IMG/VR virus record: IMGVR_UViG_2563366988_000007
Location: 1 to 40,587 of that record
Source: a virus
Taxonomy: Duplodnaviria > Heunggongvirae > Uroviricota > Caudoviricetes
DNA length: 40,587 nt
Strand: one strand, 5' to 3'
Positions 3,368 to 35,545 of the stretch are shown here, piece by piece. How positions within the stretch are numbered: position 1 is the first letter of the stretch; every line of letters starts with the position of its first letter. The notes under the pieces are model-generated. The model saw only the letters and a list, made by a program, of their open reading frames with translations. It did no database searches and had not been told where the DNA came from. The position numbers and the translations under genes are program-made.

Positions 3368-3395
3368 ACCCGCAAAATATTGCGGGCTTTTTTTT
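3368..3395 (+). terminator. Intrinsic terminator oriented on + strand (stem cccgcaa/ttgcggg plus T8)
   Basis: acccgcaaaatattgcgggctttttttt; T-tract only on + side. Confidence 0.45.
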
Positions 3396-6300
3396 AACGT
3401 TCTTCCAGAGACTGAATCCGCTCTTTTATCTTATCCATTTCTCTGCGCTGCCATGCTGCCTCGATATAGAATAAGAGATCAGGTCTGACCCCCCATCTAG
3501 ATCCTGCTGGCGTTATTTCAACGCGCTCAATGATGTCTTCTATTACCATCACTGGATTATCATCCTCATCAACAATGATGCTCCCGTCATTATCAGTCAG
3601 CGGCATTTCCCTTTGGCCAGTAATGACGTCATCATATACTGCGGGATAATCGTCATAGCAAAGAAAGGCATAGCGGCATGTTGTGCTTTCTTCTTCCATG
3701 AGTCCGTGAGAAATAAGAACATCACGAAGTTGCTGCGCGATTACACCATGATGTATCCTCGCCCCTTCTTCCCCCTTTATAGCGACAGCGTTCAGCCATT
3801 TATAAGCGATATACCTGACGTCACCCCAGGCATCCAGCAATGCTTCGTCAGGAGAGACCGGCTCTGTCTTTAATGTTCCGTCACTGGTAACCACAGGATT
3901 GGAGCCAAGATAAACTGTCGAGAACCTGTTTCCCGGACCACCAAGAGCATTTACATTATCAAGATAAGGTTTAACATCTCCGTTCTCAAAAAGATGTTCG
4001 AGTGCGTTATATACCGCGCGACGTGGAGTACTGCTTCCGGAACCATGCAACGTTATCATTGCACCATCTGCTGAAGACGTTGTTTCACCGCCGCTAACGA
4101 TTAATCTCTGAGCGGTAACATCATCAGACGGTACTTTCTTCGCAATAATGGCGTAATTACCCTCAAGTTTGACTTCCGCGCGAACTTGTCCTGATGTACC
4201 TGCATGGACAGTCAGTGACTGGACGGCAACATCATCTGTGAAATCAACGGGTACAGGAACCGTCCTCACGCCTGACGTCGACATAAAAGTAGGAAGCGTT
4301 CTGTTAGGAGTGGCTCCGTAGACAAAATCCCTTGAAACAAATTCTTCCTGTTTAATTTTCACCCTGAAACAATACAAATCAGCCGGGTGACCATCGTGAA
4401 CATAAGGATATTTTCTGTTGTTATCCCCTATGCTCCATGGGTTTAGAAAGTCTTCCCCACCGAAAATGTAGTACAGCCAGTTGTCTTTGATACAAACTGA
4501 ACCAACACCAACCGCAGAGTTAACTATTCCGCCCTGATAAATCTGATCAGTAACATTAACCCACTCTACATTATCCAGACTCCACTCATTGACGTTAACT
4601 CTGGTCATAAATGTTCTTGGATAATTTCCTGCATAACGGTTATCAGGTTCTCCTCCTTCCCACTCACCAAATGCGCGCTCACTGCCAAAAATAATCAGCT
4701 CATCGCCAACTTTGGCAAAAGGAAGGTTTGAGTGATGAACATTATTTGGGAAGCGAAGAGAATTCCATGATGTACCTAAATCAGAGCTTCTGTGCAATGA
4801 ACTACCGGGTTGAGTACTTAATGTCCCCCTGGTCGTCAGATACAGAATGCCATCATAATATTTTACACATGGCTCAGATGCATTCGCCTCATATTCTACA
4901 GGTATGCGTCTGCGAACAAAGCTACCAGGAGAACCGAAAGCATCAGAGAAATAGAGTATCCCAAGCTCGCGTGGACCAATATCACCATTATGGTAGCCAA
5001 CAGCAAAACTGTTATCGCTAATCGTCGCAAAACTGTGAATCTCAGTAACAGGAGTGCTTCCGTCAACAAAAGAAGGAATAGTTCCAAGACTGGTTTTTCT
5101 CCATGGTGACGAGTGAAATGATGTACCAAAACTCCAGTATCTACCCTCGTTATTCTGATCCACATCCTGGGTATTTTGCGTCGTAACTGTAAAAGTATTT
5201 TTATCAATAACAGTAGTCACCGTCATATTCCCGGTAACACCTGTAACACCAGAGTTTGAGAAGTTGACAAAATCACCAGCAAATAATCCGTGATCAGTAA
5301 TGCGAATATAAGCGACTTGCTGATTTGCTGCTTTCGTTATACCACCATAAACGCGAAGGCTGCGACTCATTGGGCGATCCCACAACTCTGCAACCTGCAG
5401 TTTATTTCCGCTCACGGTCCGCGTCTCAATTACAGCAAAAAGGCGATTTCTGACAACCCCCATACTCATGCAGTGATAGTTAACTGTGGGATAGTTTTCA
5501 TGTAAATCTGTAAGCCATTCCGGCGTTGTCCAGGTCTTCCCGTCATCTCCTGAGCGAACCCATGCAACATGGAGGTTATTTACACCATGGCGGTCTCCAG
5601 CCATAAAAGGCGCATAGATGACATTGTCATATACAAACGTTTTATCCTGCGTCCAGGCGTTGTACCACGGTGTATCTGTAATTTTAAATAACTCTCCCTG
5701 GATAAAATCTTCAGAAGCATAAAAAAGAGGCTGGCCCGGTATTCTCTCAAATAAAAAACGAGCATTTTTAAATCGACTGACATCCGGAAGAGTTGATACT
5801 TTAAAAGTAAGCCCTAATCCGTCAATTTTATAACCTGGAGATGAGGCTTCAAGGCACGCGCTTATTGCAGTGGAATCGTCATTTATACCATCACCAACAG
5901 CTCCAAAATCTTTGGGGCTAATAGCATCACGCATTTTATCCTGGAACGTTCGGTACACAGCCCCAGAACCATACTGAATAAACCAACCAAAACCACCAAC
6001 AACCCCGGCGATTGCAGCATCGACATAATTACGCATTGAGCGATTATTTACAGCGTCCTGCTCAAATGATGGATCTGCAAGGTTAGAAATTTTGTTTTGC
6101 TTTGCATCGTAATATTTTGCAAGCAAAGATGGTTTCATCAATGCACGTCTGAACCACCCAAAACATTGCTGGATCAGCATCGTCAGGTAGTCAAAGGCAT
6201 CTTCATGCACTTCGGGGAAAAATTTTCCCTGATTGCGAAGGTCTGTCTCCTGCACTACATCAAGCACACGATCTATCGTAATTCGCCATCCAGTAGCAAG

Positions 6301-6513
6301 CGGAGACGGAAGAACCACAGAACCGCCACTATAAGTGCCCGCCCCAGTTACCGTATAACCGGTATCCAGAACCAATTCTGTTACGTTCCCGTTCAGGTCA
6401 GACACCTGAACAACCAGGTCTGATTTTCTGAAAATTCGAAAAGTATACGGAAACGATGTCGTAACGCCGTTACCGGTGTATTCGTTGTGGTCAACTTCGG
6501 TTGAGACCGTCAT
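3394..6513 (-). CDS. Tailspike/depolymerase: epsilon15-type N-terminal anchor, beta-helix-like central domain, C-terminal intramolecular chaperone (peptidase S74-like)
   Basis: N-term MTVSTEVDHNEYTGNGVTTSFPY; FGAVGDGINDDSTAI motif; Asp-box-like SGDDGKTW and SSDLGTSW; C-terminal SDGTLK cleavage-type motif. Confidence 0.8.
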   Translation of the reverse strand: MTVSTEVDHNEYTGNGVTTSFPYTFRIFRKSDLVVQVSDLNGNVTELVLDTGYTVTGAGTYSGGSVVLPSPLATGWRITIDRVLDVVQETDLRNQGKFFPEVHEDAFDYLTMLIQQCFGWFRRALMKPSLLAKYYDAKQNKISNLADPSFEQDAVNNRSMRNYVDAAIAGVVGGFGWFIQYGSGAVYRTFQDKMRDAISPKDFGAVGDGINDDSTAISACLEASSPGYKIDGLGLTFKVSTLPDVSRFKNARFLFERIPGQPLFYASEDFIQGELFKITDTPWYNAWTQDKTFVYDNVIYAPFMAGDRHGVNNLHVAWVRSGDDGKTWTTPEWLTDLHENYPTVNYHCMSMGVVRNRLFAVIETRTVSGNKLQVAELWDRPMSRSLRVYGGITKAANQQVAYIRITDHGLFAGDFVNFSNSGVTGVTGNMTVTTVIDKNTFTVTTQNTQDVDQNNEGRYWSFGTSFHSSPWRKTSLGTIPSFVDGSTPVTEIHSFATISDNSFAVGYHNGDIGPRELGILYFSDAFGSPGSFVRRRIPVEYEANASEPCVKYYDGILYLTTRGTLSTQPGSSLHRSSDLGTSWNSLRFPNNVHHSNLPFAKVGDELIIFGSERAFGEWEGGEPDNRYAGNYPRTFMTRVNVNEWSLDNVEWVNVTDQIYQGGIVNSAVGVGSVCIKDNWLYYIFGGEDFLNPWSIGDNNRKYPYVHDGHPADLYCFRVKIKQEEFVSRDFVYGATPNRTLPTFMSTSGVRTVPVPVDFTDDVAVQSLTVHAGTSGQVRAEVKLEGNYAIIAKKVPSDDVTAQRLIVSGGETTSSADGAMITLHGSGSSTPRRAVYNALEHLFENGDVKPYLDNVNALGGPGNRFSTVYLGSNPVVTSDGTLKTEPVSPDEALLDAWGDVRYIAYKWLNAVAIKGEEGARIHHGVIAQQLRDVLISHGLMEEESTTCRYAFLCYDDYPAVYDDVITGQREMPLTDNDGSIIVDEDDNPVMVIEDIIERVEITPAGSRWGVRPDLLFYIEAAWQRREMDKIKERIQSLEER

Positions 6514-6617
6514 GTTAAATCTCCAGATAGTCGCAGCACCCGTTGCGCCGCATATCTGGTTATTCTATTACCTGTAAAACCACATATGGATAGAAAGGCT
6601 GTAAATACGAATAGATA

Positions 6618-6632
6618 TTACCTTTCAGGTAA
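6618..6632. promoter_or_regulatory. Operator-like palindrome TTACC-N5-GGTAA (ttacctttcaggtaa)
   Basis: Perfect 5+5 inverted repeat; identical 15-mer at 25228. Confidence 0.5.
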
Positions 6633-6669
6633 TTTGCAAAACGTGCTGGATAGCAAACAAATTATTTGC

Positions 6670-6689
6670 TACTGTATAAATATACAGTT
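6670..6689. promoter_or_regulatory. LexA box (SOS box) tACTGTataaatatACAGtt
   Basis: CTGT-N8(AT-rich)-ACAG matches LexA consensus; 20 nt upstream of SD/ATG of 6709 gene. Confidence 0.7.
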
Positions 6690-6708
6690 ATTGCATGGAG
6701 AAGATAAG

Positions 6709-6966
6709 ATGCAGCAGTATCACTATCCACTGGAAGACGGATTTACCGAAAGGATTCACACGCCGGGAGGCGTCAGGTCACTGGTGGAGGGATCGCACTT
6801 GATGAAATTACTCCGGGATCTCGATAAGGATGGATTTAATGTCGATGGCCCACTTGCCGAACTGACTGCACTGATTAACTACGTCACCAGCTCACAGATG
6901 TCTATGCGGGATCTGCAAACACATCTCGACTATTGTGCCGAACAATTACGAAAACAAACCAGATAA
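6709..6966 (+). CDS. Small SOS-regulated protein, candidate antirepressor (Tum-like logic); paralogous to C-terminal domain of adjacent Bro-N protein
   Basis: GGAG SD 8 nt upstream of ATG; LexA box in promoter; shared motifs HTPGGV/HSPSGV, AEL, RDLQTH/RDIQTH with 7282-7977 C-terminus. Confidence 0.55.
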   Translation: MQQYHYPLEDGFTERIHTPGGVRSLVEGSHLMKLLRDLDKDGFNVDGPLAELTALINYVTSSQMSMRDLQTHLDYCAEQLRKQTR

Positions 6967-7104
6967 GGTTTGCAATTACCAAGTGGAGTGCTTATATTTA
7001 CCTTTGAGATAAATTTACATCGCACTCCTCTTGTGCCATAGTAATCGGGCACTGGCAAAATCCAGTGCCGGGATTGGCGTCCCGGATTACTAAAAGGCGC
7101 ATTC

Positions 7105-7124
7105 ACCGCGCAAGCGGTTTTTTT
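7105..7124 (+). terminator. Intrinsic terminator (accgc-gcaa-gcggt plus T7)
   Basis: caccgcgcaagcggttttttt. Confidence 0.5.
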
Positions 7125-7281
7125 ATGCGTATAGCACGGCCACATTCGTATTATGGTGGGCTGTGTGGGGGCACCGAAAGGTGCGCCGGGTCCTTTTAGC
7201 CGGTTACGCCAACCCTGCACAGTTCACCACCAACCGATTGGCGTCGGTAGTGGTGATTAACCAGACTAAAAGGTAACCACT

Positions 7282-7977
7282 ATGACAGCTACAAAAAGCA
7301 CGTCCATTTTTTCTTTCGAATCCCAAGCCGATATACGGGTAATCGTCATTAATGGTGAGCCATGGTTTATCGCTTCAGATGTTTGTCGGGCTATAGGCAT
7401 AGCAAACCATCGAGATGCTGTTCGAAAACTTGATGATGATGAGAAGGGCGTCGCTTCAACCGACACCCCTGGCGGTGAGCAAGAATCGATCATCATCTCC
7501 GAGTCAGGCCTCTACACACTGATCCTCCGCTGCCGCGACGCAGTGACACCAGGCACTATCCCCTACCGCTTTCGTAAATGGGTTACAGGTGAGGTTCTTC
7601 CTCAGATCCGCCGCACCGGAAGCTACATTAAAAACTCGCTCCCGCAGGAAGAACGCATAAAGATGGTTGCCGACCAGGTAGCCAACGCCACGGCGTCAGC
7701 AGTAATGCAGGCGATGAAGATAGAGAACAAAACCTACAGCGCCCCGCTGAAGCCCGGCTACCGCAGCCTGATTCACTCGCCGTCTGGTGTTCTCGGCCTG
7801 ACGGAAAACTCACTGCTGATGAATCTGCTGAACCAGTTACAGGACGACGGGCACGACGTATCGGGCGCGGCGGCGGAGCTGACCACCATGTTCTGCTACA
7901 TCGTCGGTGTGAGCAAATGCCTGCGTGATATCCAGACCCACGCGGAATACATCAACGACAAGGCAGGGTTCTTCTGA
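7282..7977 (+). CDS. Antirepressor, Bro-N domain protein with C-terminal domain shared with 6709-6966
   Basis: Bro-N signature IRVIVINGEPWFIASDVCRAIGI...SESGLYTLIL; SD aaaagg. Confidence 0.75.
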   Translation: MTATKSTSIFSFESQADIRVIVINGEPWFIASDVCRAIGIANHRDAVRKLDDDEKGVASTDTPGGEQESIIISESGLYTLILRCRDAVTPGTIPYRFRKWVTGEVLPQIRRTGSYIKNSLPQEERIKMVADQVANATASAVMQAMKIENKTYSAPLKPGYRSLIHSPSGVLGLTENSLLMNLLNQLQDDGHDVSGAAAELTTMFCYIVGVSKCLRDIQTHAEYINDKAGFF

Positions 7978-8021
7978 CGGGCGGTGGCACAGGGATGTGC
8001 CTTTAAATAATTCTGTACAGA

Positions 8022-8050
8022 TTGCAGACTGTGGGTGAATAGCGTACTAT
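8022..8050 (+). promoter_or_regulatory. Putative sigma70 promoter (-35 TTGCAG, 17-bp spacer, -10 TACTAT) abutting operator palindrome
   Basis: Hexamers read directly; drives 8077 ORF. Confidence 0.35.
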
Positions 8051-8064
8051 TACCTTAAAGGTAA
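8050..8064. promoter_or_regulatory. Operator-like palindrome TTACC-N5-GGTAA (ttaccttaaaggtaa)
   Basis: Perfect inverted repeat immediately upstream of SD aaggagg. Confidence 0.5.
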
Positions 8065-8076
8065 AGGAGGCGCGAT

Positions 8077-8244
8077 ATGACAGCGTTGAAAAATCGTACT
8101 CAGCACAATGAACAAGCCAAGCAATGCTGGGATGTCATTGGAAAAGTTATGCTTGGCCGCGCAAGCAAAGAGCGCGACAAGGATATGGTTTACCAGACAG
8201 GAACATCTTTCAGCGACTTCAAGGCGGCATTTCGCTCCAAATAG
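8077..8244 (+). CDS. Small protein (55 aa), unknown function; not in ORF track (below length cutoff)
   Basis: Strong SD AAGGAGG 7 nt upstream of ATG; translation MTALKNRTQHNEQAKQCWDVIGKVMLGRASKERDKDMVYQTGTSFSDFKAAFRSK. Confidence 0.4.
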   Translation: MTALKNRTQHNEQAKQCWDVIGKVMLGRASKERDKDMVYQTGTSFSDFKAAFRSK

Positions 8245-8264: not shown

Positions 8265-8705
8265 TTGAAGTTTAACATTAGAATATCTAATAGTTTTCTA
8301 CATGGGGAAAGCAACACCCCTTTCGCTGTAGACGGACCTTTCCTTACTGATGATGAAATAAAAATCATACAAAGTTTTTTAGAGGATGTTGCCAATGGAA
8401 GGGCGCTTGTTGGAAAAAACAAGCCCTCGTGGGTTGATGATAACCATGATAAAATTCCCGGCTCAGACAATTATGAGCAAGAGAATTATTGGCATTATCA
8501 TTGTGGGCCAACATGGTATCCAAACACATTTAAGAATTATACCATTAACTTAAATTTCAACCCTGGCGGAAGGCATTCTAATGAATGCATTCATTATGCA
8601 AAAAATGATAATGAAATTGTCATTGTTGGATTTTCAAGAGAACACATACCTTTCCTTTCATCAGATGGAAACAACAATCCGCTTTTTAATGATGAAGAAG
8701 AATAG
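8265..8705 (+). CDS. AT-rich moron protein (146 aa from TTG start; alternative ATG start at 8124), unknown function
   Basis: AGGAG SD 6 nt before in-frame TTG; no internal Met; low-GC codon usage unlike flanking phage genes; followed by terminator. Confidence 0.4.
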   Translation: MKFNIRISNSFLHGESNTPFAVDGPFLTDDEIKIIQSFLEDVANGRALVGKNKPSWVDDNHDKIPGSDNYEQENYWHYHCGPTWYPNTFKNYTINLNFNPGGRHSNECIHYAKNDNEIVIVGFSREHIPFLSSDGNNNPLFNDEEE

Positions 8706-8726
8706 CCCGCGCTGCGGGCTTTTTTG
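8704..8726 (+). terminator. Intrinsic terminator (gcccgc-gct-gcgggc plus T6)
   Basis: agcccgcgctgcgggcttttttg directly after stop codon. Confidence 0.6.
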
Positions 8727-8797: not shown

Positions 8798-8959
8798 ATG
8801 AAAAAAGCATTTGCTGCACTGTTCGTTTTGTTGTCTCTGGTAGCTTCAACTCAGGCCTTTGCCGGTCGTTGTCAGCACGACAGCGACACTGCTGCTGACG
8901 GCTCCCGCTGCGGTGGGCGTTCTGCGGACTCCCGTCCGGGCGGCGGTGGCATTCGTTAA
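8798..8959 (+). CDS. Small secreted peptide (signal peptide plus about 30-aa Cys-containing mature part)
   Basis: MKKAFAALFVLLSLVASTQAFA signal; weak SD; inner ATG of ORF 8726-8959. Confidence 0.35.
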   Translation: MKKAFAALFVLLSLVASTQAFAGRCQHDSDTAADGSRCGGRSADSRPGGGGIR

Positions 8960-25564: not shown

Positions 25565-25641
25565 GTGGCATTAGCTCAGTTGGACAGAGCAACCGCCTTC
25601 TAAGCGGTTGGTCGCAGGTTCGAATCCTGCATGCCACGCCA
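25565..25641 (+). tRNA. tRNA-Arg, anticodon UCU
   Basis: Cloverleaf folded by hand: acceptor GTGGCAT/ATGCCAC, D-arm GCTC/GAGC, anticodon stem ACCGC/GCGGT with loop CTTCTAA, T-arm GCAGG-TTCGAAT-CCTGC, discriminator G, encoded CCA. Confidence 0.85.
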
Positions 25642-34785: not shown

Positions 34786-34841
34786 TCACCCATAAGGTAA
34801 CAAAAATCAAGGATAGTTACCTACGGGGTGCATTTACCTGT
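34786..34841. promoter_or_regulatory. Immunity operator cluster: three overlapping TTACC-N5-GGTAA-type sites (34786-34800 imperfect, 34809-34823 half, 34827-34841 perfect)
   Basis: tcacccataaggtaa / ttacctacggggtgc / ttacctgttgggtaa between cro and repressor. Confidence 0.55.
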
Positions 34842-34903: not shown

Positions 34904-35488
34904 ATGAAAAGTATCCAGGACGTCCGCAGGCAAAATCTCAACGACTTGATCGACCGTGAATTCAATGGTGTTCAGACGCGGATGGCAGAAAAACTTGGAA
35001 CTCAGGCAAATCTGGTAAACCGCTGGGCTCTTGGCAAGAAGGTTATCGGCGACCAGGTTGCGCGAAAAATTGAAGCTGCCGCCAATAAACCCCGTAACTG
35101 GCTTGATATCGATCGCTCGCTTTCTCAGGAAGGTTTTCAGCCTGTCGGCCCAAGCGACATTGGTCAGCTGGCGGCTCACAACCTGGAACGCTGGATGAGC
35201 GAAAGCCGCGACCTTTCAACACAGGGAAAACTTCACCGCGCATCCGGCGTCGCCCAGGTGACAATCAGCCGCCTGTTAAACAATGAGGTCAGCGTTTCCA
35301 TTTCCACCCTGGAGAATGTTGCATCCGCATTCGGGCGTCACGGCTATGAATTACTGATTCACCCGCACGACCCTGCGACTATCAACTATGACCGCTCGCG
35401 CTACGCATTGTTACCCGAAACAGAGAAGGCAAAGATCGAAAGTTACATTGAATTTGTCATCAGCCAGAACGAAAAAAACAAACAATAA
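34904..35488 (+). CDS. Immunity repressor, tandem HTH (XRE-type) domains, no LexA-like S24 autocleavage domain
   Basis: Two HTH-like segments (QTRMAEKLGTQANLVNRW and ASGVAQVTISRLLNNE); no GDSM/Ser-Lys peptidase motif. Confidence 0.7.
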   Translation: MKSIQDVRRQNLNDLIDREFNGVQTRMAEKLGTQANLVNRWALGKKVIGDQVARKIEAAANKPRNWLDIDRSLSQEGFQPVGPSDIGQLAAHNLERWMSESRDLSTQGKLHRASGVAQVTISRLLNNEVSVSISTLENVASAFGRHGYELLIHPHDPATINYDRSRYALLPETEKAKIESYIEFVISQNEKNKQ

Positions 35489-35532: not shown

Positions 35533-35545
35533 ATTGCCAGCAAGA

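Follow-up and report, generated by a model that had tools for sequence, protein, structure and literature searches.

The window, that is, the whole stretch of 40,587 nucleotides that was analysed (IMG/VR record IMGVR_UViG_2563366988_000007), is 96-99% identical at the nucleotide level to phiV10, ZX5 and TL-2011b and, by its sequence, is an epsilon15/phiV10-like Uetakevirus genome of the E. coli prophage type. Between the tailspike gene and the virion genes lies an island on the opposite strand, where the initial annotation had placed it (Table 1). The island carries a small antirepressor gene, ant, preceded by a predicted LexA box; a spacer with matches to two families of regulatory RNAs; and a second antirepressor gene, bro-ant, the product of which is a fusion of a Bro-N domain with an Ant domain. 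A PADLOC scan of all ORFs of the island yields no match.

Table 1. Predicted features of the antirepressor island, its flanks and the repressor gene (positions in the window)
Feature	Position	Strand	Basis
Tailspike gene	3394-6513	-	Gene order
Probable Rep operator (ATTACCTTTCAGGTAAT, a perfect palindrome of 17 bp) in the control region between the divergent tailspike and ant genes	6617-6633	.	Motif enrichment
Predicted LexA box (SOS box), overlapping the putative ant promoter	6670-6689	.	PWM 27.5 bits, conservation
ant, 85-aa small antirepressor, SPC32H Ant ortholog	6709-6966	+	86.7% aa identity; PDB 5D50_E; phrog_450
Degenerate operator-like palindrome (3 mismatches), adjoining the -35 element of the promoter-like site of isrK	6997-7013	.	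Motif scan
Promoter-like site TTTACA-17-CATAGT (TG-extended), placed for a putative isrK start at ~7049	7014-7042	+	Consensus scan only
isrK-type sRNA that mimics the C4 target (upstream a1/b1); intrinsic terminator at 7105-7125	7049-7124	+	Rfam RF01394
C4-type antisense RNA	7149-7234	+	Rfam RF01695
TTGGCGT and CTAAAAGG in the leader of bro-ant, the C4 targets on the downstream side	7238-7244, 7266-7273	+	Exact complements of the C4 loops
bro-ant, Bro-N/Ant-domain fusion antirepressor, 231 aa	7282-7977	+	PF02498; phrog_130; PDB 5D50_E
Virion genes	from 9152	-	Gene order
rep, encoding the immunity repressor (non-cleavable, homologous to SPC32H Rep) on which both antirepressors presumably act	34904-35488	+	PDB 5D50_A, 5D4Z

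The product of ant (ribosome-binding site GGAG) appears to be an ortholog of the Ant protein of the Salmonella phage SPC32H. A tblastn search identifies 86.7% amino acid identity to a gene of KC911856 (SPC32H) that is annotated in GenBank as "ant: anti-repressor protein", and a comparison with PDB chain 5D50_E yields an E-value of 1.4e-46; the PHROG and Pfam matches are limited to phrog_450, phrog_15539 and phrog_1760. The entry 5D50 is the co-crystal of SPC32H Ant with the non-cleavable repressor Rep. Tetrameric Ant binds two Rep dimers, breaking the DNA-binding tetramer (summarised in PMC9638917). The window encodes a homolog of this repressor, which is similar to chain A of 5D50 along residues 1-190 (E 4e-42) and to 5D4Z, the C-terminal domain of Rep (E 4e-20), and shows 43% identity to SPC32H Rep. 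Searches of Pfam and NCBIfam with this protein detect only HTH-type domains (HTH_3 at residues 106-147 and, more weakly, a second one at 21-61), without any peptidase S24 domain, which agrees with the initial description of a repressor with two HTH domains and no LexA-like autocleavage domain. No Q-type antiterminator is found among the ten ORFs examined. The small Ant is 87% identical to its SPC32H counterpart and Rep only 43%; the interaction between the two proteins is assumed to be conserved.

Upstream of ant, the core CTGT-N8-ACAG (6672-6687) is embedded in a 20-mer, TACTGTATAAATATACAGTT, that matches TACTGTATATATATACAGTA in 18 of 20 positions; the ant start lies 20 nt downstream. With a position weight matrix made from 21 E. 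coli LexA sites, this 20-mer scores 27.5 bits, above all 21 training sites, compared to 10.4 bits for the next best site in the window and a maximum of 18.2 bits among 100 shuffles. The box is near-consensus and unique in the window. It is kept across genera, in phiV10, SPC32H, Tyrion and TL-2011b; in SPC32H, it occupies the homologous position, and SPC32N differs from SPC32H by a C to A substitution inside the box, in the ACAG half. SPC32N is reportedly a constitutively lytic variant, the box mutation being accompanied by constitutive expression of ant. Given the matrix score above every training site and every shuffle, the short distance to ant, the cross-genus conservation and the SPC32N mutation, it is extremely improbable that the palindrome is a chance match or controls the divergent tailspike gene instead of ant, even though the intergenic region is divergent, with the tailspike start 157 nt away, and the bare CTGT-N8-ACAG pattern is present in the window in three copies versus 0.63 expected, the other two scoring about 10 bits or less. 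A consensus promoter scan does not call a promoter for ant, the -35 and -10 hexamers of which are weak; the candidate, TGGATA-17-TACTGT, is proposed from its conservation.

A second palindrome, ATTACC-N5-GGTAAT, occurs 12 times in the window against 1.08 expected copies, an 11-fold enrichment. The motif flanks rep both in the window and in SPC32H (8 copies in 3.6 kb versus 0.08 expected), the copies next to this gene in the window being those at 34833, 35545 and 35607; the copy upstream of ant is kept in five phages. These palindromes, including those within the island, are probable Rep operators; a further palindrome lies at 8049. The degenerate copy next to the isrK promoter-like site has better-conserved equivalents (TTACC-N5-GGTAA at the position corresponding to 6997) in phiV10, Tyrion and a Klebsiella phage; in the Stx phage P27, the operator-like motif is absent from the position of the isrK promoter.

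The initial annotation proposed that an SOS/LexA-controlled antirepressor acts in trans on a repressor without an autocleavage domain. This proposal is supported because Ant, Rep and the box are all orthologous or homologous to components of the experimentally characterised SPC32H system. By this orthology, host LexA would occupy the SOS box over the ant promoter in a lysogen. DNA damage would lead to RecA-stimulated LexA cleavage and synthesis of Ant, which would bind the C-terminal domains of Rep; the repressor, itself uncleaved, would then leave the ATTACC-N5-GGTAAT operators, and lytic growth would ensue. Prophages of this type are thus predicted to be SOS-inducible via antirepression and not repressor cleavage; for those of the phiV10 species, a microcin that damages DNA raises induction 21- to 47-fold (bioRxiv 10.64898/2026.05.26.727859). 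The claim that the entire island is SOS-gated holds for the small gene, which appears to be directly controlled by LexA, but probably does not extend to its Bro-N paralog, which is located behind a promoter-like site of its own, a terminator and the isrK/C4 module.

This paralog contains an N-terminal Bro-N domain (PF02498, residues 17-107, with 76.7 bits against the Pfam cutoff of 25.6) and shows highly significant similarity to phrog_130, "anti-repressor Ant" (E 2e-62). Its C-terminal domain (residues 150-226) matches PDB chain 5D50_E with an E-value of 1.9e-13, and a BLASTP comparison aligns the small Ant with residues 150-223, with 43% identity over 74 aa (E 3e-16). Profile searches identify phrog_450 with both proteins (E 7e-48 for the small Ant and 6e-36 for the Bro-N protein), so that the paralogy noticed in the initial annotation is borne out. 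Altogether, 19 columns are invariant across the small Ants and the C-terminal domains of the fusions. In antirepressors of the Bro-N class, a C-terminal domain of the KilA-C/ANT type is common; here, no such domain and no Pfam match besides Bro-N is found, the C-terminal domain being SPC32H-Ant-like instead. Because the fusion has the Rep-binding Ant domain in common with the small Ant, the repressor that it inactivates is most likely Rep, too, or a related Rep. In phiV10, the Bro-N gene is truncated and lacks the Ant domain, and this second module is absent from SPC32H and epsilon15; thus, it appears to be dispensable for induction.

The spacer between the two paralogs (6967-7281) matches two RNA families in Rfam, isrK (RF01394, 77.9 bits against the gathering score of 50, E 3.5e-15) and C4 (RF01695, 77.7 bits against 45, E 1.1e-13); in addition, c4-a1b1 (RF03163) overlaps isrK at 7036-7088 with 45.1 bits, 1.6 below its gathering score of 46.7. 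The two loops of the C4 RNA, CCTTTTAG (7192-7199) and ACGCCAA (7206-7212), are exactly complementary to CTAAAAGG (7090-7097) and TTGGCGT (7074-7080) within isrK, and again to the copies of the same sequences in the bro-ant leader, where CTAAAAGG covers the Shine-Dalgarno sequence ahead of the ATG at 7282. Comparison of the window with three other phage lineages reveals covariation of loops and targets, with three-way compensatory changes in Tyrion (TTGGTCT/AGACCAA and CTACAAAGG/CCTTTGTAG), the Klebsiella phage (CTAAACGG/CCGTTTAG) and Stx P27 (GAAAAAGGA/TCCTTTTTC). The duplex energies of the whole C4 RNA with isrK or with the leader are only modestly better than those of shuffles (4/200 and 7/200, respectively). 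Because the C4 loops are complementary both to isrK and to the region around the Bro-N Shine-Dalgarno sequence, and because compensatory changes are seen in four related phages, the second antirepressor is probably gated by an RNA switch of the P1 immI/Gifsy-1 IsrK type and not directly by LexA. The Ant of Stx P27 has no similarity to the Bro-N Ant of the window, so that the RNA cassette and the protein appear to be separable modules.

A protein-coding spacer, encoding an "ash family" protein or an orf45-like peptide instead of regulatory RNAs, was considered and rejected as very improbable. The leader-ORF candidates are of 35 and 37 aa, and the 35-aa one begins at a conserved ATG at 7153; in ZX5, a CDS equivalent to 7163-7276 is annotated as "ash family protein"; and the coupling to anrP in Gifsy-1 requires that orf45 be translated (PMC4825925). 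However, neither frame is open across five homologs, with stops in phiV10 and Tyrion and lengths from 15 to more than 48 aa, the spacer ORFs have no Pfam or NCBIfam match, and the substitutions keep the RNA pairing, not the codons.

The Rfam matches, complementarity and covariation are best compatible with the following scheme for the RNA-gated module. The promoter beside the operator-like site would drive isrK, with most transcripts ending at the isrK terminator, and read-through past this terminator would give rise to C4 and to the mRNA of bro-ant. Both C4 loops would pair with the bro-ant leader and mask its Shine-Dalgarno sequence, blocking translation of the fusion, and IsrK, with the same two target sequences, would serve as a C4 decoy that relieves the block. 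The fusion could provide second-stage reinforcement after Rep release or come into play when a cell is infected or superinfected, like immI of P1 and P22.

The strong terminator at 7105-7125 and the separate promoter-like site at 7014-7042 make it unlikely that the whole island is a single SOS operon, with transcripts from the ant promoter running through isrK/C4 into bro-ant, both paralogs being SOS-gated, and isrK, as a 3' extension of the ant mRNA, titrating C4 in a feed-forward loop. The genes are on the same strand, the scan finds no terminator-like site between 6966 and 7049, both C4 target sequences are present in IsrK, and a fraction of Gifsy-1 transcripts passes the isrK terminator (PMC4825925), all of which would fit such an operon; nevertheless, in TL-2011b a 1.1-kb insertion separates ant from isrK, Stx phages carry the isrK-C4 cassette in the nin region without an adjacent LexA-gated ant, and SPC32H functions with ant alone. 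Unlikely, too, is an integrated two-input circuit, as opposed to two independent cassettes, whereby the SOS-induced ant mRNA extends into isrK, release of Rep fires the operator-flanked isrK promoter, and the resulting surge of IsrK titrates C4 and unlocks translation of the fusion, which in this circuit might form mixed tetramers with the small Ant. If such a circuit exists, induction would be irreversible or would extend to heteroimmune relatives, and the covarying C4 loops would represent a second, RNA-based immunity specificity in podoviruses.

It is conceivable, if doubtful, that the fusion is aimed at the repressors of other resident Uetakevirus-like prophages and not at the phage's own Rep, and that C4 is a second determinant of immunity, in the manner of P1/P7 immI. 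Compensatory differences in C4 loops and targets between phages are the pattern expected of immunity-specificity determinants, the identity between the fusion paralog and the small Ant is only 37-43%, and antirepressors of Gifsy and Fels are active against repressors other than their cognate ones (PMC3121763). Against this stand the 19 columns that are invariant in both kinds of Ant domain, the match of the fusion C-terminal domain to 5D50_E and the presence of the phage's own operator-like motif at the cassette promoter.

A Uetakevirus prophage is likely to have its induction (anti-immunity) locus in this island, which consists of two antirepressor modules in tandem, one controlled by LexA and the other by RNA. 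Through this reading, which draws on sequence comparison, putative functions can be given to genes that hundreds of E. coli genomes list as "hypothetical"; among the carriers are the APEC O1 K1-specific prophage, phiV10 (an O157 phage) and TL-2011b (an EHEC O103 phage). The combination of a LexA-box ant with an isrK/C4 Bro-N gene in tandem is present in about 5% of complete E. coli genomes. It would seem that the SPC32H Ant fold is a repressor-binding domain of a portable kind, which can be joined to Bro-N and come under the control of the C4/IsrK RNAs.

The closest known system is that of SPC32H, the Ant/Rep/LexA antirepression switch of which has reportedly been worked out already (Kim & Ryu 2013, J Virol 87:11775; Kim et al. 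2016, PNAS 113:E2480). SPC32H belongs to the genus Uetakevirus, and its ant locus likewise separates the tailspike gene from the virion genes and runs on the other strand; it shares with the window the nearly identical Ant, the LexA box, the homologous Rep without an autocleavage domain, and the ATTACC-N5-GGTAAT motif around rep and upstream of ant. In contrast, the SPC32H island consists of ant only, whereas the window contains an additional ~2 kb (isrK, C4, the Bro-N/Ant-domain fusion and three accessory ORFs), and its Rep is considerably diverged from that of SPC32H.

The immI locus of P1/P7 comprises the C4 antisense RNA, icd and ant under the C1 operator Op51, with C4 translationally repressing the antirepressor. 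As in the window, an RNA of the C4 family (RF01695) possesses two loops that pair both upstream (a1b1, RF03163) and downstream, over the ribosome-binding site, and a repressor-operator-like site lies at the cassette promoter; furthermore, the covariation of loops and targets between phages resembles P1/P7 heteroimmunity. Unlike P1 immI, the window appears to lack an icd homolog, its C4 target lies directly over the Shine-Dalgarno sequence of the antirepressor gene, and PHROG and Pfam searches yield no match to P1 Ant1/2, to which the Ant protein of the window appears unrelated.

In Gifsy-1, IsrK acts in trans to turn on translation of the downstream antirepressor AnrP (PMC4825925). The isrK-orf45(STnc1160)-anrP locus (Hershko-Shalev et al. 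2016, PMC4825925) resembles the window in the succession of isrK with a terminator, a C4-like RNA region and an antirepressor gene, and the C4-pairing positions of the window have the same numbering as those altered in the compensatory mutants of Gifsy-1, isrK-G28/orf45-C162 and G31/C159 (PMC4825925). However, the Gifsy-1 locus belongs to the nin/Q region, beside antQ, whereas the cassette of the window follows a LexA-gated ant in the virion region; an orf45-like ORF is not conserved here, and the C-terminal domain of the antirepressor is SPC32H-Ant-like. GfoA and GfhA of Gifsy-1/-3, which are LexA-controlled antirepressors, and Tum of coliphage 186 follow the same logic as the window: the repressor is non-cleavable, and the gene for a small antirepressor under LexA control lies outside the immunity region (PMC3121763). 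In family-level searches, no Pfam, PHROG or NCBIfam family links the small Ant to Tum or GfoA, and the virus families and repressor folds differ, so that this resemblance is functional only.

The initial annotation could not match the arrangement of two paralogs to any described system. For the small gene, this no longer holds, given the SPC32H system; for the tandem combination it does, no description having been found in the literature, and a search of the literature for a phiV10/LexA/repressor account or a treatment of C4 and IsrK in the Uetakevirus group likewise found none. The locus is largely ordinary, that is, the LexA switch described in SPC32H together with an antirepressor under antisense RNA control of a known type; two well-known antirepressor control logics are stacked at one locus, with no new principle involved.

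The window is essentially a complete phage or prophage genome because it encodes an integrase, RecE/RecT-like proteins, methyltransferases, a holin, a Cro-like protein (divergent from the repressor gene) and tRNA-Arg; the latter (25565-25641, anticodon TCT, a reader of the rare AGA codon) is located close to the beginning of the late/terminase region. The 1.55-kb region 6500-8050, around the two paralogs, shows 96-99% identity to phiV10, vB_EcoP_ZX5, TL-2011b and other members of Uetakevirus (epsilon15-like podoviruses) and 99.5% identity to a prophage in E. coli APEC O1; among 5,426 complete E. coli genomes, 279 contain 80% or more of it. As initially annotated, the antirepressor island is opposite in strand to the flanking tailspike and virion genes, the same layout as in phiV10 and SPC32H. 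The tailspike consists of 1039 aa, and its annotation in the near-identical APEC O1 prophage is endosialidase catalytic beta-propeller protein, which points to a K1-capsule-specific Uetakevirus; phiV10, in contrast, differs in its tail fiber and carries an O-acetyltransferase.

At 18 of its 20 positions, the LexA box (TACTGTATAAATATACAGTT) agrees with the E. coli consensus. A position weight matrix derived from 21 E. coli SOS boxes assigns it 27.5 bits, more than any of the training sites, compared to 10.4 bits for the second-best site in the 40.6 kb and a maximum of 18.2 bits over 100 shuffled windows, so that the box is both real and strong. The 85-aa product of the adjacent small gene is present in 35 phage records (tblastn), among them those of the Salmonella phages SPC32H and SPC32N, in which the homolog (86.7% identity) is annotated “ant: anti-repressor protein”, and matches PDB entry 5D50 chain E, “Anti-repressor protein”, with an E-value of 1.4e-46. 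The database homologs form 147 clusters, all from Enterobacterales; among the 120 listed, nearly all are stand-alone proteins of about 86 aa. In an alignment of the control regions, SPC32H, phiV10, Tyrion and TL-2011b have their LexA box at the equivalent site; in Klebsiella phage ST11-OXA245phi3.2, the box is degenerate (ATGT...ACAG, with a 1-nt shift). SPC32H and SPC32N differ at the box by one C-to-A change in the ACAG half-site, the mutation that Kim and Ryu reportedly linked in 2013 to constitutive Ant production and the lytic phenotype of SPC32N; in the same work, Rep is said to remain uncleaved upon SOS induction and to be inactivated by LexA-controlled Ant instead. A DNA-damaging microcin induces phiV10-species prophages of gut E. 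coli 21- to 47-fold (bioRxiv 10.64898/2026.05.26.727859).

A search with the immunity repressor, Rep, detects similarity to 5D50 chain A, “Repressor” (E 4e-42), and to 5D4Z, the Rep C-terminal domain entry (E 4e-20); the N-terminal domains of this protein and SPC32H Rep have in common the segment NLVNRW. The domain matches of Rep are all of the helix-turn-helix type, with no S24 peptidase among them, in agreement with the initial view that a recognizable autocleavage domain is missing. Given the orthology with SPC32H, the 5D50 matches and the homologous LexA box, the originally proposed SOS-controlled, trans-acting antirepressor mechanism appears to be right, yet already described. The 17-bp palindrome ATTACC-N5-GGTAAT is present in 12 copies in the window against 1.08 expected; the copies at 34833 and at 35545 and 35607 bracket rep, and others are located at several early or divergent control regions. 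The rep gene of SPC32H is flanked by the same motif (8 copies in 3.6 kb, where 0.08 would be expected), which is also found upstream of ant in five of the five phages aligned. These palindromes are probable Rep operators and, if so, Rep would act on the island too, a putative control resembling that of the P1 immI locus by C1.

The assignment of the second paralog as a Bro-N protein holds, with PF02498 spanning residues 17-107 of 231. Other Bro-N antirepressors commonly contain a KilA-C/ANT domain, whereas this protein lacks it and has an SPC32H-Ant-like domain instead. The paralogy of this C-terminal part with the small Ant is corroborated by an aligned stretch of 74 residues with 43% identity (E 3e-16) and by matches of both proteins to phrog_450. 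An alignment of four small Ants with the C-terminal domains of three fusions has 19 invariant columns, and the fusion domain matches 5D50_E (E 1.9e-13), so that the two share a fold and probably Rep binding as well. The small Ant of ST11-OXA245phi3.2 (L005 1851-2111) has DGHDVSGAAAEL, as do the fusion domains, at the place where the E. coli and Salmonella small Ants carry DGFNVDGPLAEL; this hints that recombination or exchange between the paralogs may have occurred.

The initial annotation recognized the two paralogs and overlooked the RNA elements, isrK and C4, that occupy the 315-nt spacer between them. A c4-a1b1 match (“a1, b1 targets of C4 antisense RNA”), obtained in an Rfam search in E-value mode, overlaps isrK with 45.1 bits, below the gathering score of 46.7. 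The spacer RNAs can be assigned to the isrK and C4 families, and conservation of a coupled ORF like icd or orf45 is not established. The C4 segments CCTTTTAG (7192-7199) and ACGCCAA (7206-7212) are perfectly complementary to CTAAAAGG and TTGGCGT, respectively, each of which occurs twice, in isrK (7090-7097 and 7074-7080) and in the Bro-N leader (7266-7273 and 7238-7244), where CTAAAAGG spans the Shine-Dalgarno sequence and lies 9-16 nt before the start codon (ATG, 7282). Covariation supports these pairings in Enterobacter phage Tyrion (targets TTGGTCT in both places and CTACAAAGG / CTACAGAGG; C4 AGACCAA and CCTTTGTAG), ST11-OXA245phi3.2 (targets CTAAACGG / CTAAGCGGG; C4 (T)CCGTTTAG) and Stx phage P27 (target GAAAAAGGA; C4 TCCTTTTTC), and the paired positions are, nucleotide for nucleotide, the Gifsy-1 compensatory pairs isrK-G28/orf45-C162 and isrK-G31/orf45-C159. 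In Gifsy-1, short IsrK turns on, in trans, translation of the AnrP antirepressor from a read-through transcript, and a stable RNA, STnc1160, occupies the place corresponding to C4 (PMC4825925).

A protein-coding reading of the C4 region was rejected: neither the 35-aa ORF from 7153 nor the 37-aa ORF 7163-7276 is conserved in frame, and no family support was found for either. The “ash family protein” CDS of ZX5 (QZE12052.1), equivalent to 7163-7276, lies entirely within the C4 RNA and target leader. This frame is interrupted in phiV10 and Tyrion, and the CDS is probably an annotation artefact from translating a C4/CI-type RNA gene; what is conserved in the spacer is the RNA.

Features of the island, its surroundings and the repressor gene
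Feature	Position	Strand	Remarks
Tailspike	3394-6513	-	one flank of island
Operator-like palindrome	6617-6633		perfect; 37 nt upstream of LexA box
LexA box	6670-6689
Small ant	6709-6966	+
Operator-like palindrome	6997-7013		abuts isrK -35; degenerate here, well conserved in relatives
Promoter-like TTTACA-17-CATAGT	7014-7042		upstream of isrK; predicted start ~7049
isrK	7049-7124	+	RF01394, 77.9 bits (gathering score 50)
Intrinsic terminator	7105-7125		isrK end
C4 antisense RNA	7149-7234	+	RF01695, 77.7 bits (gathering score 45)
Bro-N/Ant-domain fusion	7282-7977	+
Operator-like palindrome	8049-8065		third island copy; precedes accessory ORFs
Accessory ORF	8077-8244	+	phrog_8607
Accessory ORF	8265-8705	+	phrog_5954
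Terminator	8704-8720		bound of accessory ORFs
Accessory ORF	8799-8959	+	53 aa, signal-peptide-like N-terminus
Terminator	8982-8965	-	bound of accessory ORFs
Virion genes	from 9152	-	other flank of island
rep	34904-35488
ATTACC-N5-GGTAAT 17-mers	6617, 6997, 8049, 25227, 32447, 32509, 34448, 34833, 35545, 35607		also 28372, 28390

Comparison across phages shows that the ant module and the isrK/C4/Bro-N module are separable, with SPC32H and epsilon15 possessing ant alone. The Bro-N gene of phiV10 (L001 4780-5459) is split or truncated into 194 aa and a 29-aa ORF, with the Ant-like domain lost; a functional second paralog is thus missing from this phage, the type phage of the E. coli group. In TL-2011b, a 1.1-kb insertion (L007 2489-3577, - strand, “similar to hypothetical protein”) separates the small ant from isrK. 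The Ant domain finds three tblastn places each in TL-2011b and HEMP4, which suggests a third copy. The isrK-C4 cassette is present at ~80% identity in the nin region of Stx phages, in more than 100 Stx1/Stx2 phage records (P27: L006 2400-2745), and the “Ant protein” downstream of it in P27 shows no similarity in sequence to the Bro-N Ant; the RNA switch thus moves independently of the protein under its control. The three accessory ORFs that follow the Bro-N gene occur in TL-2011b and ZX5 but in neither SPC32H nor phiV10; PADLOC and Pfam searches with them yielded no matches, and they may be morons.

By orthology with SPC32H, LexA would keep ant off until the SOS response lifts repression, whereupon Ant would bind the C-terminal domains of Rep, freeing the DNA of the repressor; according to the summary in PMC9638917, an Ant tetramer binds two Rep dimers, disrupting the DNA-binding tetramer. 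RNA family membership, complementarity and covariation suggest that C4 blocks translation of the fusion and that IsrK, as an a1b1 mimic, counteracts C4. More speculatively, IsrK might increase when Rep is released, when transcription from the ant promoter reads through, or both, which would unlock the fusion as an antirepressor with a second-stage or cross-acting role. Between 6966 and 7049, no terminator-like site was found, so ant-isrK co-transcripts are possible.

With respect to known systems, literature searches found no paper on the tandem of a LexA-gated Ant and a C4/IsrK-gated Ant-domain fusion. The LexA-gated Ant is described in the sister phage SPC32H; every feature of the SPC32H Ant/Rep/LexA system that could be tested is present here. 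Ant resembles 186 Tum and the Gifsy GfoA proteins in function only. Each part of the island is already known, and many sequenced E. coli genomes have the arrangement.
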